A stretch of DNA of 64,000 bases from an uncultured Gemmatimonadaceae bacterium (GTDB lineage: Bacteria > Gemmatimonadota > Gemmatimonadetes > Gemmatimonadales > Gemmatimonadaceae), in the NCBI GenBank assembly GCA_963790305.1, contig CAWBOC010000010.1, forward strand, positions 320,001 through 384,000. The letters are read 5' to 3'. Within the stretch, counting starts at the first letter, position 1. Each line of letters starts with the position of its first letter. Shown here piece by piece: positions 56,153 to 62,043 of this stretch. The translations under genes were made by a program, and so were the position numbers. The notes below the pieces were generated by a model, which was not told the origin of the DNA, did not search any database, and worked only from the letters and a program-made list of their open reading frames with translations.

Positions 56153-56614
56153 CTACGTCACGTTGGCCTTTACGATCTGATCATTTTGCTTGATCTGCTT
56201 CATCACGTCGAGGCCCTTGGTGATGCGGCCGAAGACGGTGTGCACGCCGTCGAGGTGCTTGGCGTTCTGCTCGCTGAGCACCATGAAGAACTGGCTGCCA
56301 CCGGTGTCCTTCCCGGCGTGGGCCATCGACAGTGCGCCAACGACGTGCTTTTGATTCCCGCCCTTGGTCTCGCACTTGATCGTCCATCCGGGACCACCCG
56401 TGCCGACAGGGCCTTTGGCGTGCTCGCCGCCTTTCGAGTAGGGATCGCCGCCCTGGACGACGAAATCCGGAATCACGCGATGGAACTTCGTCCCATCATA
56501 GAACCCGCTGTTGGCGAGCTTCTCGAAGTTCGCCACCGTGCTCGGGGCGTCCTTGTCATACAGTTCCGCGGTGATCGTCCCGCGGTTCGTTTCGATGGTA
56601 GCAGTTTTAGGCAT
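56153..56614 (-). CDS. Cyclophilin-type peptidyl-prolyl cis-trans isomerase
   Basis: [49 protein letters not shown]. Confidence 0.96.
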
Positions 56615-56640
56615 GTCGTGAAGATAGTTGGAGGGCTAAG

Positions 56641-56717
56641 GGTGTCGAGGGTGTCGAGGTCGTCGAGGTGATCGAGGAGAGGCGACGACGTTCCCTCCAT
56701 CACCTCGACGACCTCGG
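56641..56717. repeat. Family B palindromic element, copy B3 (inverted relative to B1; supplies the nth stop)
   Basis: GTCGAGGGTGTCGAGGTCGTCGAGGTGATCGAGGAGAGGCGACGACGTTCCCTCCATCACCTCGACGACCTCG. Confidence 0.85.
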
Positions 56718-57438
56718 CGTTTCGACAGGAACCACGAGCGACGACGGACACAAGTCCCACAACGGACACTCTTCGCACAAGCGGACGTCGAGCGACGCAG
56801 ATCGACCGGCCGTGAAAGATCAGCAGGTGCGAGAACAACGTCCACTTCTCTCGCGGCACGATCTTCACCAGATCCTGCTCGATTTTCACTGCGTCGGTCT
56901 GACGCGTGAGGCCCAGACGAAACGACACCCGCGTGACGTGCGTGTCGACCACGATCCCCTCGTTCTGCCCGAATGCGTTGCCGAGGACGACGTTCGCCGT
57001 CTTGCGACCGACGCCCGGGAGATGCGTGAGCTCGTCCATCGTACGCGGGATCTCGCCGCGGTGCTTGTCCACGACCGCCCGAGCCATGCCCACGAGACTC
57101 TTCGTCTTGTTGCGGAAGAACCCCGTGCTCTTGATGCGGTTCTCCAGGTCCTCCGTCTCCGCCTCGGACAACGCGGCCGCGTCGGGGAAGCGCGCGAACA
57201 GCTCCGGCGTCACCATGTTGACGCGCACGTCCGTGCACTGGGCGGACAGAATCGTCGCGACGAGGAGCTCGTAGGGATTCCGGTAGTCGAGCGAGCACTT
57301 CGCGTCCGGGTACGTCTCCTCGAGCCGGCGGATGTACTCGAGCGCGACATCGCGCCCGACCTGCCTCGGCCTCTTGGGAAGCGCCTTACGAGTGACGAAG
57401 GGCGGTTGTGGAGGTGCTGCGCTCGCGCGCGGAGTCAT
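56700..57438 (-). CDS. nth: Endonuclease III, with a +1 frameshift near 56780
   Basis: LLVATILSAQCTD, LPGVGRKTANVV HhH, VDTHV. Removing one base restores C-X6-C-X2-C-X5-C (ICVARRPLCEECPLWDLC) and a stop at 56700. Confidence 0.92.
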
Positions 57439-59168
57439 GCGCGGGCGCGGCGCGACCTGGCGCGCTCGACGATGGCGTCGGCGTCCCACGTGTTGAGCAC
57501 ATCGGAGGGCTCGAGCCAGCCCTTCCGCGCGATGCCGACGCCGATCTCGGTGACATCCAGCCCCGCCGTCGAGTGCGCATCGGGACCGATTGCGACCGTG
57601 ACGCCTCGCTGCTTGGCGGCCTGACAGGTCTGCCAGTCGATGTCGAGGCGATGCGGGTCGGCATTCAGCTCGACGACGACGCCCAGCTCGGCCGCCTTGT
57701 CGAGCACCGCCTCCATGTCGATCGCGTACGGCTCACGCGTCAGCAGCAAACGCCCGGTCGGGTGGCCGAGAATCGTGAGGTGCGGGTTGTCGAGCGCCTT
57801 GAGGACGCGATCGGTCATTGCCGCCCGATCCATCCCGAATCGCGAGTGCACCGACCCGATGACGAAGTCGAAGCGCTCGAGGATCTCGTCGTCGTAATCG
57901 ACGCGCCCGTCGGCGAGAATGTCGGCCTCGATGCCTTTGAGGATCTTGATTCCATCGAGCGTCTCGTTGATGCGATCGATCTCCTCGTGCTGCGCGACGA
58001 GCGCTTCGCGCGACACCCCGCCGGCGTAGAACGCCGACTCGGAGTGATCGGAGATGCCGATGTAGCTCCACCCGCGCGCCTTCGCCGCCGCCGCCATCTC
58101 GGCGATCGTCGCCTTGCCGTCCGAGTACTGCGAGTGGCAGTGGAGGACACCCTTGATGTCGGCATAGGCGATGAGCGACGGGAGCGCGCGTCGTGAGGCG
58201 GCGTCCAGCTCACCCCGGCCTTCGCGCAGCTCCGGCTCGATGTAGGGCAGCCCGAGCGCGTCGTAGAACGCGACTTCGTCGGGAATCGGAAGGACGTTGC
58301 CGCTGGCGTCCCGCAGCTCATCCTCGGCGAGTGTGAAGCCGCGCTCCGACGCGTGCGCGCGAAGCTCGGTCGTGTGCGACTCGCTTCCCGTGGCGCGCCA
58401 GAGTGCGATGCCGAAGCGCTGCGGCTCCACGCAATGCAGATCGAGTACGGTCCCGTCCACATAACGAATGCAGAGTGATCGTCCCCCCGCGCCGACCACA
58501 TCGCGCACGCCGCCGGCGCGGGCGAACGAGGCGGCGACCGAGGCCGGCGTCTCGCGGCAGGCAGCGACGATGTCGACGTCGCGGACGGTCTCGCGGCGCC
58601 GACGAATCGAGCCCGCGACGAGCGCGCGCTCGACCTCGGGGTGGGCTTCGACCATCGCGAGGAGGCGTCGCGCCTCGATGACCGCGTGCGGGTAGAGGAT
58701 GTAGGCGTTCGTCGACCGCAGGTATCCGATCCCCTTGAGGAGCTTCTCGGCGGTCTTGGGTCCGAAGCCCTTGAGCTTCGCCAGGCGCCCGTCGCGCGCG
58801 GCTTCCTCGAGCTCCTGAACGGTCGAGATGCCGAGCCCTTCGTGGAGCGTGTGGATCTTCGAGATGCCGAGTCCGGGGACGCGGAGCATCTCGAGGAGGC
58901 CTTCCGGCGTCTGCTCGCGGAGCTGGTCGAAGTAGCGCGACTCGCCCGTCTCGCACAGGTCGGCGAGGACGCCGAGCGTGGCCGGCCCGATCCCTTTGAG
59001 CTTGGCGAGGGAGCCATCGCGGTGCATGGGGCAGAGGTCGTCGGTGACGACCTCGAGGACGGCCGAGGCCGCCGAGCGGTATGCGCGCGCCTTGAAGCGG
59101 TTCTCCCCGCTGAGCTCGAGGAGGTCGCTGATCTGGGTGAGGACGTGGGCGGCGGTGCGGGGATCCAT
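57435..59168 (-). CDS. polX: DNA polymerase X with C-terminal PHP domain
   Basis: GENRFKARAY, GIGP, GSIRR.RETVRDVD, TGS..H, IEPELRE, PHP motifs HCHS, DHS, GHPTGR, DAH. Confidence 0.95.
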   Translation of the reverse strand: MDPRTAAHVLTQISDLLELSGENRFKARAYRSAASAVLEVVTDDLCPMHRDGSLAKLKGIGPATLGVLADLCETGESRYFDQLREQTPEGLLEMLRVPGLGISKIHTLHEGLGISTVQELEEAARDGRLAKLKGFGPKTAEKLLKGIGYLRSTNAYILYPHAVIEARRLLAMVEAHPEVERALVAGSIRRRRETVRDVDIVAACRETPASVAASFARAGGVRDVVGAGGRSLCIRYVDGTVLDLHCVEPQRFGIALWRATGSESHTTELRAHASERGFTLAEDELRDASGNVLPIPDEVAFYDALGLPYIEPELREGRGELDAASRRALPSLIAYADIKGVLHCHSQYSDGKATIAEMAAAAKARGWSYIGISDHSESAFYAGGVSREALVAQHEEIDRINETLDGIKILKGIEADILADGRVDYDDEILERFDFVIGSVHSRFGMDRAAMTDRVLKALDNPHLTILGHPTGRLLLTREPYAIDMEAVLDKAAELGVVVELNADPHRLDIDWQTCQAAKQRGVTVAIGPDAHSTAGLDVTEIGVGIARKGWLEPSDVLNTWDADAIVERARSRRARA

Positions 59169-59188: not shown

Positions 59189-59218
59189 TTGACTTCGGTG
59201 ATTTCTTCGGGCTACTCT
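59189..59218 (+). promoter_or_regulatory. Sigma70-like promoter containing a CTTCGG-N6-CTTCGG direct repeat (candidate operator)
   Basis: TTGACT (59189)-N18-TACTCT (59213); direct repeats at 59193-59198 and 59205-59210; GAGGAGG RBS at 59232. Confidence 0.5.
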
Positions 59219-59243: not shown

Positions 59244-59822
59244 GTGCCAAAATCAGACCTGCCGATCGGCGGGGAGTACGCACCCGTGGCCGATCGGATC
59301 GCGCTCTTCTACGAGCGCTTCCCGGCGGGACGGATCATCACCCAGCTCACCATGCACAACCAGCGCGAGGTGGTGTTCCGCGCCAGCGTGTATCGGACGG
59401 AGAAGTCGCGCACTCCGGCGGCGACGGGGTGGGCGAGCGAGCGGATCGGCGATGGGGACATCAACACCGTCGCCTGCCTCGAGAATACGGAGACGTCGGC
59501 GATCGGGCGGGCGCTGGCGAATCTGGGGTTCACGGCGTCGAAGAACCGGCCGAGCCTCGAGGAGATGGAGAAGGCGGCGAGGGCCCGTACGCGGATGGTG
59601 CTCGCCGATCGGTATCAGGGGCCAGCGAGCGATACGCTCGAGGACGTGCTGACGCTGGTTCGAAGCGCTGAGCGATATGGTCTCCGCACTCGCAGGGCGA
59701 CCTGGCTTCGGACCCGGATCCGGCGTGGCCTGTTCACACCCGCTCAGTTGGAGCGCCTCTCCCGCACACTCCGTCGCTGGGTTCGAGCTGACATGGTTCA
59801 GGTCGTCCAATCGCGCTCGTAG
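59244..59822 (+). CDS. Phage-type Rad52/Sak-like single-strand annealing protein homolog (putative)
   Basis: Y.PVA.RI..F....P.GRI.T, V.FRA.VY, ATG.A.E, LEN.ETSAIGRALANLG, which parallels the Rad52-family TDA.KRAL..FG helix; strong RBS before the GTG. Confidence 0.6.
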   Translation: MPKSDLPIGGEYAPVADRIALFYERFPAGRIITQLTMHNQREVVFRASVYRTEKSRTPAATGWASERIGDGDINTVACLENTETSAIGRALANLGFTASKNRPSLEEMEKAARARTRMVLADRYQGPASDTLEDVLTLVRSAERYGLRTRRATWLRTRIRRGLFTPAQLERLSRTLRRWVRADMVQVVQSRS

Positions 59823-59960
59823 ACGAGTACGCGTGGTCGCCGGCGGGGCGTGTCACCACCTCGCATCTAACAGGCGTCCCGCGGATGCGTAGCCAGACGA
59901 GCCAGTCGACGCCGACAAAGCACGACACGGGGATGAGGATGACGAACGGGAGGCGGTGGG

Positions 59961-60732
59961 GTGCTGCGAGCGTACAGAGAGGCGAGCGACGACGCGGTGG
60001 TTCGCGCGATGCGCGCCGGTGAGGAGCCAGCGATGCGCGAGTTCATCGAGAGGTATCAAACTCTCGTGTTGGTGCAGGCGCGCCGTTTTCGAGTTCCGGA
60101 CGACGAGCGTCAACACTGGACGGCCGAGGCGCTGTACGATGTGGCGCTCTCGCTGATCCGTTCAACGCGTCCGGTGCCGACATCGCTGCCCGGATATCTG
60201 ATCGCGGCCTGTCGTCGAAAAGCCATGATGAGTCAGCGCGCTCGCCGTTCCCGCATGGTGCGAGAGGCGGCCGTTGCGGGCAACGTGGGCGGAGAGCGGG
60301 TCATTGTTGGGACGTGTTCCGAAGACAGCCTTCGCCAGGCGCGCGGTCCAGCGCGCGAGGAGTCGTCGCTGCCCTTGGTCCTCGAGCGCTTGGTGGACGC
60401 GCTCGACGATCGGCTGGATACGAGCGAGAGAACGCTACTCTCGTGGATCGGGGCAACGGGTTCCCTATAGCACCATGGCCACCTGGCTCGAGATCAGCCG
60501 CTCGGCCGTGATCAAGCGCGCCATGCGACTGCGAGTTCGATTGCTTGGCGTGGCGATGGAGTTCGGCCAGACACTCGATACGGCGGACCGGCAGGAGTTG
60601 GTGCGGTTCTTTCGGCGCACCGGCGCGCTCGACGCCATTGCCCTGGCCCGCCTGGAGAACAGTGAGCACGCGGTGGATTCCCGCCGATCGTCGACAGTTT
60701 CCGTACGGGGCGTACCTCAGGAGGACGGCTAG
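59961..60732 (+). CDS. Divergent ECF-like sigma factor with C-terminal extension, split by a +1 frameshift at about 60450
   Basis: SDDAVV.AMRAG.E.A..EFIERY and SLPGYLIAACRRKA (region 2-like). Deleting one G of ATCGGGG gives region 4 HTH QRVPYSTMATWLEISRSAVIKRAMRLRVRL. Start uncertain. Confidence 0.7.
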
Positions 60733-60734
60733 CC

Positions 60735-61466
60735 ATGGACGACCGCGATGCAGTGTTTCAGCGCGAGCAGCTCGACAGACTGGAATCCGCGAGCGACCCA
60801 TTGATCGACGTCATCGGATATCTGGAATCCCTTCGACCGATCTCACCCGCGTTTACCGATGAGCGGTTCGTCACCTGGGTCGCGCAAGAAGGGCGCATGC
60901 CTGCAAGCGCCGCTGAGGCGCTTCCACCTGAGGCGGTCGCCACCCTCGCGAGAAGGATCCGCCTGACGGCGGCGGCCGAGCAATCGGGCATGTACCTGGT
61001 GGATCAGCTTCCCGAGCAGGTGGCTGTGCGCGCTGGGTGGCCGGTGAGCTCCGCCATTGTCGAGCTCGCGAGAAATCGTCAGGCAGCTGTGGTCGACCTC
61101 GCCATCGCGGCCGGCACGGGACGCGAGCTCTGGGATGCGGAGTGCGAGAGTGCAGTGGCGGTGCCGGAGGTGCTTCCGCGAGGTGAGTACGTCGCGCTCA
61201 CCGTGAGCGGTGACAGCATGGAGCCGCTGCTGCACTCCGGAGATCTCGTGCTCGTCAAGCGCAGTGGAGAGCTCAAGTCCGGCGCCATTGTCGTGATGCG
61301 GGACACCGATGCGGGATACGTCGTGAAGAAGGTGGGTCGAATCGAGACCCGTTCGGTGGAATTGCTCTCGCTGAATCCGGCCTACGGCCGCCGGCGGGTT
61401 CGACGGACGCGCAGCTCGGTGCTTGGAACGGTCTTGTTACGATGGTGCCAACACGGTGGGACCTGA
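60735..61466 (+). CDS. S24 (LexA/UmuD-type) autopeptidase with a non-HTH N-terminal domain
   Basis: AAG cleavage site (A126-G127), GDSM (S161), VVKK (K198), LLSLNPAY. Confidence 0.88.
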   Translation: MDDRDAVFQREQLDRLESASDPLIDVIGYLESLRPISPAFTDERFVTWVAQEGRMPASAAEALPPEAVATLARRIRLTAAAEQSGMYLVDQLPEQVAVRAGWPVSSAIVELARNRQAAVVDLAIAAGTGRELWDAECESAVAVPEVLPRGEYVALTVSGDSMEPLLHSGDLVLVKRSGELKSGAIVVMRDTDAGYVVKKVGRIETRSVELLSLNPAYGRRRVRRTRSSVLGTVLLRWCQHGGT

Positions 61467-61509
61467 CGGAGTCACCAGGCCGCATTCTCTGAAGGCAGGA
61501 GGTGCCCTT

Positions 61510-62043
61510 GTGATCCAGCAGAGCATACCAAGCACTTCGTTCTTCACGAATGATGTTGCCGGCCTCATCAAGGTTCTGGTGACCATCGTTGTCCCGACCA
61601 CGGCCGCTATTGTCGCCAGTGTGTGGAAGTTCATGCGCGGGGACCTGCAGGCGGCTGATGCTCGTCTCCATGAGGCTGTCGAGCGCGGAGACGCAGGAAT
61701 CCGTCGTGACATCGACGGGCTCGGGACGCGCGTCGGCGCGTTCGAAACCCGCCAGACCGAGCTCGAGGGCCAGGTACGAGGGATGAGCGATCTCGTTCAG
61801 GCCCAGGCACGCGAGCTCGCGCTGGTCGCGTCGGCTCATGGGACGATCGATCGCCGGCTCATGGAATTGCGAGACGTGAACGAAGGCTTGAGGGCGTCGC
61901 TCACGGCCGCGATCCACTCTGCCGGGCGCGAGTCGACGCATGAAATCGCGCAAGTGCGTGAGCGCCTGGCGATGATCGAAAAGGTGGCGGCGCTAGTCGA
62001 GCGTGGCGTCATGAGGCATGGCACGCGCGATCGGTCGCGATGA
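61510..62043 (+). CDS. Hypothetical membrane-anchored coiled-coil protein
   Basis: AGGAGG RBS before GTG at 61510; one TM helix, then a heptad-like helix. Confidence 0.65.
   Translation: MIQQSIPSTSFFTNDVAGLIKVLVTIVVPTTAAIVASVWKFMRGDLQAADARLHEAVERGDAGIRRDIDGLGTRVGAFETRQTELEGQVRGMSDLVQAQARELALVASAHGTIDRRLMELRDVNEGLRASLTAAIHSAGRESTHEIAQVRERLAMIEKVAALVERGVMRHGTRDRSR

Follow-up and report, generated by a model that had tools for sequence, protein, structure and literature searches.

Described SOS systems act either by removal of a repressor, as with LexA and CI, or by activation of a polymerase subunit, as with UmuD, and the removal of described anti-sigma factors depends on other proteases, on partner switching or on autoproteolysis of a non-S24 kind. 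In the LexA-controlled umuDC operon, UmuD carries no DNA-binding domain, and its RecA*-stimulated self-cleavage is a later step that alters the partner encoded by the neighbouring gene. In Pseudomonas, an S24 regulator of the PrtR-PrtN or AlpR-AlpA type links DNA damage to a positive transcription factor and to competition and killing genes (pyocins, lysis). Here we analysed a stretch of 64,000 nucleotides (nt) from an uncultured Gemmatimonadaceae bacterium (the window, G000:C10:320001-384000, from a source genome of 4.3 Mb in 13 contigs), in which the gene of a divergent extracytoplasmic function (ECF) sigma factor is followed immediately by that of a LexA-type S24 autopeptidase with no recognisable DNA-binding head. 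Judged from its sequence, this sigma-S24 module fits an undescribed gene switch that DNA damage would activate. In the literature searched, the pairing of a sigma factor with an S24 protein is not described. Neither S24, LexA, peptidase, SOS nor Gemmatimon occurs as a term in the main text of the ECF re-classification paper (PMC7826278), and a group description in its supplement may bear on priority.

The two central genes of the module, and the codons of the S24 catalytic and cleavage-site residues, are located as follows:

59961..60732, + strand: gene of a divergent ECF-type sigma factor whose C-terminus extends about 60 amino acids (aa) past region 4 (alignment, read-through, profile against PDB)
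60735..61466, + strand: S24 (LexA-type) autopeptidase gene (PF00717, alignment, model, fold search)
61110-61115, + strand: codons of Ala126-Gly127 of the S24 protein
61215-61217, + strand: codon of Ser161
61326-61328, + strand: codon of Lys198

Along the + strand, a gene at 59244-59822 is followed by the sigma-like gene, the S24 gene and an open reading frame (ORF) at 61510-62043. The sigma-like frame opens with GTG 59961 and closes with TAG 60730-60732; after a gap of 2 nt, ATG 60735 begins the S24 gene. These coordinates bear out the layout given in the initial annotation, an earlier reading of the bare sequence that proposed a self-cleaving anti-sigma factor.

Conservation of the pair was analysed across the family. 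The S24 family occurred in 60 of 201 genomes, and the sigma gene lay directly upstream of the S24 gene in 64 of the 65 places fetched, so that S24 stands directly downstream, as the gene of a class I anti-sigma factor would; the remaining place (L057) is cut by a contig end. In all 30 first loci, the window's own (L001) included and one (L002) partly cut, tblastn with the sigma protein found sigma directly upstream, and sigma was also there in 34 of 35 further places, the last being L057. Throughout, locus L007, from an unpublished genome (G134), stands as a single row in alignments and counts and carries no claim by itself, and L025 was left out of alignments A1-A5. At the genome level, a sigma profile matched all 60 S24-positive genomes at E <= 2.2e-28, and only one of 141 S24-negative genomes gave a strong match (G143, 3.1e-60); four others gave matches from 7.6e-18 to 5.2e-13 that look like other ECF sigma factors or a fragment. 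Genomes with two to four S24 copies carried sigma beside every evaluable copy, as in the four pairs of G047; the second S24 copy of G155 is L057, not evaluable at its contig end. In 22 of 29 loci there is an in-frame start codon for S24 that overlaps the sigma stop, the overlap being 4, 8 or 11 nt; this count is an upper estimate because the start-choice rule favoured overlapping codons. The pairing, whose lack of conservation would have spoken against the earlier proposal, is a conserved one.

Seven extra sigma copies were also found: one has an S24 gene at a contig edge, two are cut and four truly lack S24. Behind the latter lay a GspE-like ATPase gene in one case and genes for a small secreted protein and an RHS-type giant protein in two, the fourth copy being itself broken. 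In the first case (L086, G143:C8:400200-407000), the sigma gene and a 492-aa ORF overlap at an ATGA, where the ORF starts; by eye its product resembles a GspE/PilB-type secretion ATPase, and the next ORF looks pseudopilin-like by eye.

Evolutionary distances over 58 pairs correlated more strongly between the sigma factor and the N-terminal part (N-part) of the S24 protein (r 0.71) than between the N-part and its own C-domain (r 0.60). The partial correlation of sigma and N-part given the C-domain was 0.53, a value reached in 0 of 2000 permutations, and distances of the first gene were weakly correlated with those of sigma, N-part and C-domain (0.26-0.38). This co-divergence fits co-evolution of the sigma factor with the N-part.

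The catalytic half of the S24 protein is well defined. PF00717 matched residues 123-233 (E 5.4e-21, 74.9 bits against a cut-off of 23.3), and A125, A126, G127, S161 (in GDSM) and K198 were invariant in 40 of 40 aligned members, which upholds the residues singled out in the initial annotation. We take A84, G85, S119 and K156 of E. coli LexA to map to A126, G127, S161 and K198, with an offset of 42. An AlphaFold model built from the 40-member alignment (mean predicted local distance difference test, pLDDT, 81) showed a LexA-like catalytic domain at residues 85-243. In the VIA fold search the model matched LexA of Thermotoga (3k2z_B) with Z 14.3 and a root-mean-square deviation (rmsd) of 2.3 over 121 aligned residues; residues 116-239 superposed on residues 75-198 of the E. 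coli LexA C-terminal fragment 1jhc_A (Z 13.1, rmsd 2.6, 119 aligned) with a residue offset of about 41-42, and 2ho0 was matched with Z 11.3. The match to LexA begins at about residues 102-116, ends at 240 and includes the cleavage-site region. By fold and by family profile the protein is a peptidase S24, and its aligned sequence carries the predicted Ser/Lys dyad and Ala-Gly scissile bond of these enzymes.

This protein is nevertheless neither LexA nor UmuD. It shares with LexA and lambda CI (MEROPS S24) the catalytic fold, the Ala-Gly site and the Ser/Lys dyad, but no winged-helix or HTH_3 head was found in it, and the LexA model TIGR00498, a full-length match to which would mark a LexA, scored 28.2 bits against a cut-off of 110.95 on residues 123-234 alone. 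With UmuD-UmuC the module has in common a putative LexA box and an S24 protein without a DNA-binding head; however, the partner is a sigma factor and not a Y-family polymerase, the N-part has about 115-125 residues, helical in the model, against an arm of 24 in UmuD, and the UmuD model NF007621 reached 27.6 against a cut-off of 110. No umuC or dinB gene was seen among the flanking ORFs or other neighbours. The initial annotation was right both on this point and on the length of the N-part, which it gave as 125 aa. The same genome encodes RecA (PF00154 at 2e-140) and, elsewhere, two canonical LexA proteins (TIGR00498 at 1.8e-64 and 4.5e-53). The S24 protein is 82-86% identical to many intact relatives, and those homologues that bear names are all from Gemmatimonadaceae.

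The N-part was analysed separately. In the model, residues 1-83 form three helices (3-32, 38-52 and 65-83), and modelling this part alone kept the helices (pLDDT 80) and left their packing undefined (predicted template modelling score, pTM, 0.39). Pfam detected no helix-turn-helix (HTH) or LexA_DNA_bind family in the N-part of any of the 40 members, an N-part profile gave no match among PDB sequences at E <= 10, Foldseek against pdb returned nothing at E <= 0.001, the wide VIA fold search reached at best Z 4.8 with generic helical hairpins, and scores in the ESM Atlas (0.76) were below noise. Therefore the statement that this part shows no recognisable HTH holds by Pfam, PDB profile and fold search, and the N-domain does not fold detectably as a DNA-binding head. 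Against 1.84 billion representatives the N-part profile matched 145 proteins at E <= 0.001; in all of them it was N-terminal, in proteins of about 200-310 aa or shorter fragments, and none of the 145 showed a sigma fusion or another architecture. In these profile searches the N-part behaves as a small, self-contained family. Sampling across the phylum recovered it from 13 of 69 genomes belonging to the window's family, from 2 of 125 in a sister family (weak matches) and from 0 of 106 in ten other families. It is the fastest-evolving section of the module, with a mean p-distance of 0.76 compared with 0.67 for sigma, 0.48 for the S24 C-domain and 0.36 for the first gene, and it has no invariant residue beyond M1.

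The arrangement recalls ECF/anti-sigma pairs that proteolysis inactivates (RseA-sigmaE type; RsgI autoproteolysis, PMC10328401), in that the partner gene follows the sigma gene and is co-translated with it, the partner bears a small all-helical domain that would face the sigma factor, and release is proposed to be proteolytic. It differs from them in that the partner is soluble and has no detectable anti-sigma domain or zinc motif, and that cutting would be done by its own S24 domain, not by site-1 and site-2 membrane proteases or by a SEAL-type rearrangement.

As to the sigma factor, the gene in the window lies in two frames, 59961-60470 and 60274-60732. When the GGGG run at 60450-60453 was taken as one step, a continuous protein of 256 aa (P0001) resulted that aligned over its full length with 26 intact homologues, and the gene is intact in relatives. 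A 413-nt contig of soil run X5, spanning 60420-60833 at depth 3, has one base fewer at the G run and is otherwise identical; the frame is thereby restored, and the extra G is probably an assembly error or a very recent lesion. This single low-depth contig is weak evidence, contigs of the other three runs (X1, X2, X3) not covering the site. The length differences of a single base with respect to relatives or soil contigs number three: at 59201, where the spacer of the LexA-like box is N7 and that of relatives N6; at 60450-60453, the extra G; and at 61485, where an X1 contig is one base shorter inside the second copy of the bipartite motif described below. They are either assembly indels or strain differences.

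Taken alone, the sigma protein of the window resembles sigma-70/ECF models only weakly (TIGR02937 17.5 bits, below the cut-off of 42.9; phrog_1740 at 0.0065) and has no Pfam match. The profile of its family matched CnrH in PDB at 1.1e-6 (profile positions 16-206), RpoE at 2.5e-5 and SigH at 3e-4, and Pfam found Sigma70_r2 in 10 of 27 members (best 4e-10) and Sigma70_r4_2 in 9 of 27. By this family profile, the protein is assigned to the ECF (group 4) sigma-70 family with predicted sigma-2 and sigma-4 domains. These are joined by a long linker with a conserved CSE...R...GP stretch, and the C-terminal extension of about 60 residues has a conserved ER..L.RFFRR motif.

Two DNA motifs accompany the module:

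59194..59210, + strand: probable LexA (SOS) box TTCGGTGATTTCTTCGG, the sole match in the window; the box recurs at relatives
59850..59871, + strand: bipartite motif copy 1 GTGTCACCACCTCGCATCTAAC, with 90 nt between it and the sigma start; low score, 8.2 bits
61469..61490, + strand: bipartite motif copy 2 GAGTCACCAGGCCGCATTCTCT, closely behind the S24 stop, with 20 nt to the GTG of the next gene; weak, 6.2 by position weight matrix (PWM)

The first of them, 34 nt upstream of where the module's first gene likely starts, falls within the 69-nt gap to the divergent polX gene, and by eye it stands between a -35-like TTGACT and a -10-like TACTCT hexamer. Of 48 evaluable places, 41 had an exact TTCGG-N6/7-TTCGG no more than 260 nt upstream of the module's first gene: 33 of the 36 that carry the Slr1353_N-like gene and 8 of the 12 that lack it; three further places had no sigma gene in the DNA fetched and fall outside the 48. 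The spacer is N7 in the window and N6 in all 40 matching relatives. The broader N6-8 pattern occurred in only 0.23% of random 320-nt windows of the genome, and 46 times in the source genome against about 28 expected from composition. Boxes in promoter context precede lexA, imuA-like, PA0069/Rv2578c-like radical SAM, ruvB, gyrB and MATE transporter genes; the lexA gene (the one with TIGR00498 at 1.8e-64) has two overlapping copies upstream, ruvB was identified at 5e-152 and the imuA-like gene at 2e-7, below cut-off. Positions of TTCGG-N6-TTCGG boxes in this genome are C6:334195-334236, C7:247072, C7:249652, C9:681153, C9:462043 and C5:82573. Written as xTTC-N7-GTTC, the box has the same geometry as the Caulobacter SOS box, given as GTTC-N7-GTTC in PMC9578287. 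Because of the gene content and this geometry, we read TTCGG-N6/7-TTCGG as the probable LexA operator of the group, and the boxes as marking a candidate SOS regulon for Gemmatimonadaceae, its candidate operator being a direct repeat of the GTTC-N7-GTTC type. With a putative LexA operator in its promoter, the module would belong to this regulon.

The second motif was obtained by an expectation-maximisation search upstream of sigma, which returned GT(C/A)AC-N6/7-(C/G)GGTGTCT in most loci. Copy 1 is probably a sigma-dependent promoter or an operator. Copy 2 is weak in the window, and the close relative G197 has a clear one (16.1) at the same place; a second copy within 350 nt after the S24 stop, scoring at least 10.8 bits, was found in 15 of 60 loci, and 4.3% of random windows held a motif scoring at least 10. 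Where a locus has two copies, both carry the matching lineage-specific variant, and upstream of the 22-nt core they have nothing in common. The motif was also found at three of the four sigma copies without S24 (L091 was not scanned): L090 and L089 have matching variants before and after sigma, and L086 has a strong copy, 17.0 bits, before it. This persistence indicates that the motif goes with sigma and argues against the S24 protein as its reader. The geometry of the motif is -24/-12-like and was seen, besides the window, in L004, L005, L009-L012, L018, L019, L022 and L027; by eye the sigma-54 GG/GC consensus is not matched. A PWM scan of the whole genome for the motif was noisy and gave no regulon.

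The outer genes of the module are:

59244..59822, + strand: Slr1353_N-like gene, function unassigned (phrog_11717; PHROG, ESM Atlas, synteny)
61510..62043, + strand: likely cargo gene for a 177-aa protein (ORF, no family, conserved in G197 alone)

The 177-aa protein had no Pfam or PADLOC match; by eye it has one hydrophobic stretch and a long helical part rich in Glu and Arg, which reads as membrane and coiled-coil. Of 66 places, 23 had a small conserved protein of about 190 aa behind S24 in the DNA fetched, and many of these had a giant protein as well, which was seen alone in three more places. The giant protein of L037 has RHS repeats (PF05593 at 5.3e-14), and an RHS-repeat locus lies behind the pair in about a third of places. 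The small gene, without Pfam match, and the giant RHS gene occupy L037:10487-16249 and lie in about 25 other loci (e.g. L038, L048, L050, L053, L061); the same two genes stand directly behind sigma copies without S24, and in several loci the DNA that separates the small gene from S24 (or sigma) contains a copy of the bipartite motif. No RHS homologue was found in C10:370000-400000. The RHS-repeat loci are reminiscent of the competition genes of PrtR-PrtN and AlpR-AlpA. PrtR and AlpR, however, are DNA-binding repressors of the gene of the activator, whereas the S24 protein studied here has no head for DNA binding and is co-translated with the activator.

The first gene was listed as an ORF from GTG 59238, and its homologues begin with MPK, which corresponds to GTG 59244. 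It matched phrog_11717 at 8.4e-26, both of its PHROG matches being of unknown function, and in the ESM Atlas it scored 0.97 to clusters carrying PF27148 Slr1353_N, a lead and not a test. It lay directly upstream of sigma in 36 of 48 evaluable places and is about 50% identical across relatives, with 31 invariant columns and an invariant motif of the ACLENTETSAIGRALANLGF type. Its phage homologues, from Bacillus, Lactobacillus, Pelagibacter and Pontimonas phages (records KU160496.1, AY739900.2), lie in early or replication regions and are annotated as hypothetical. The label 'annealase' that had been attached to this gene was not supported: Pfam in its local copy gave no match, and sequence and profile searches of PDB were empty. 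The other two flank labels stood, polX by its PF14791 and PF02811 matches and the nth-like gene by an HhH-GPD match at 1.5e-23; both lie upstream on the - strand, as does a cyclophilin gene. The nth-like ORF (56473-57489, -) extends about 140 nt into the cyclophilin gene (56153-56614, -) in another frame, an overlap also present in G127, a genome of the same genus, and an Fe-S cluster domain was not detected at its end. Synteny with polX and nth was seen only in L037 (G127), the one same-genus locus that has an upstream flank, among the 16 loci of 20 kb examined; in G197 (L045) the contig ends before the upstream flank. PADLOC gave no match among the proteins of the module.

We interpret the module as an operon under LexA repression in which the S24 protein would retain the sigma factor and, by cleaving itself, set it free, a two-step scheme like that of umuDC, and we give this reading a probability of about one in two. 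In undamaged cells, LexA bound to the TTCGG-N6-TTCGG box would keep the operon low. Judged from the sequence, the sigma factor and the S24 protein are made together, since their start and stop codons overlap or abut, and the helical N-part would keep the sigma factor inactive in the manner of an anti-sigma factor. Upon DNA damage, RecA filaments would first trigger the cleavage of LexA and hence more transcript, and would then make the S24 protein cut itself between Ala126 and Gly127 with its Ser161/Lys198 dyad. With the N-terminal fragment lost, free sigma may read the bipartite motif before its own gene and before the cargo, which would be the small secreted protein and the RHS-repeat giant in about a third of places and the family-less 177-aa protein in the window. 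Somewhat more tentative is the fuller scheme, in which a soluble anti-sigma factor destroys itself through its S24 domain on RecA filaments and so forms a second, positive tier of the SOS response, a two-key LexA-repressed circuit that switches on RHS-type competition loci and other cargo by means of a sigma factor reading a promoter with a spacing of about 13 bp. The DNA-damage switch first proposed for this locus came through the two checks run on it, conservation of the pairing and absence of an HTH, and is partly supported; the probable LexA box and the persistence of the motif at sigma copies without S24 point the same way.

Several observations weigh against this interpretation. The four sigma copies without an S24 gene (L086, L089, L090 and L091) indicate that the sigma factor can exist without this partner. 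No anti-sigma family resembles the N-part in Pfam (40 of 40 members), PDB profile, fold search or ESM Atlas, and its net charge, negative in 33 of 58, shows no consistent acidity and is not decisive. Since linked genes have a common history, the mirror-tree correlation is partly expected and counts as supporting only. The halves of the bipartite motif are about 13 bp apart, compared with the 16-17-bp spacer of ECF promoters, a misfit with -35/-10 spacing that leaves the reader of the motif unsettled. The LexA-box assignment comes from gene content and geometry, not from binding, and the scan of the source genome found no exact box before recA, a search with one mismatch not having been made. 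Finally, the window itself combines a frameshifted sigma gene, an N7 box spacer and two low-scoring copies of the bipartite motif, and this copy of the module may be inactive.

This last point leads to a first, separate alternative, namely that the module of this genome is a decaying, functionless remnant, whatever the family does elsewhere. The extra G at 60450-60453, the N7 spacer where 40 of 40 matching relatives have N6, the motif scores of 8.2 and 6.2 bits and the lack of RHS cargo in C10:370000-400000 would all fit decay. However, single-base indels are typical assembly errors, the X5 soil contig restores the frame with one base fewer, both sigma halves and the S24 gene are otherwise free of stops, and the S24 protein is close in identity to many intact relatives; we consider a remnant unlikely.

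A somewhat less probable alternative has the S24 protein acting as a third LexA- or CI-like repressor: it would bind DNA through a head of a new type and so repress the module or its cargo, and the sigma factor would merely be co-expressed with it and controlled only at the level of transcription. To our knowledge, all characterised S24 regulators but UmuD bind DNA, the conserved bipartite motif around the pair could serve as an operator, and one NCBI record names the homologue P0106 a 'helix-turn-helix transcriptional regulator'. Nevertheless, Pfam, PDB profile and fold search found no HTH, the TIGR00498 match is confined to the C-domain, the N-part has no invariant residue although the core of the motif is conserved, and sigma copies with no S24 gene beside them still carry the motif, in locus-specific variants. 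Least probable of the three is that the S24 protein acts like UmuD on another partner (the Slr1353_N-like protein or RNA polymerase) or that its cleaved form is an active co-factor and not an inhibitor to be removed, with sigma under LexA alone: UmuD does show that an S24 protein can act by protein contacts and in cleaved form, the three genes stand together in 36 of 48 places and sigma copies without S24 exist, yet S24 was never found without sigma and was found without the first gene in 12 of 48 places, and the correlation between first-gene and S24 distances is poor (r 0.26-0.30).

The system consists of three small soluble proteins and two defined DNA motifs, which makes it directly testable. 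If the proposed release of the sigma factor is true, a sigma factor held by a self-cleaving S24 partner would join the SOS and anti-sigma fields, and DNA damage would act directly on an alternative sigma factor. Such a partnership would also account for the coupling of damage to large RHS-type loci in a soil phylum that has been little studied.

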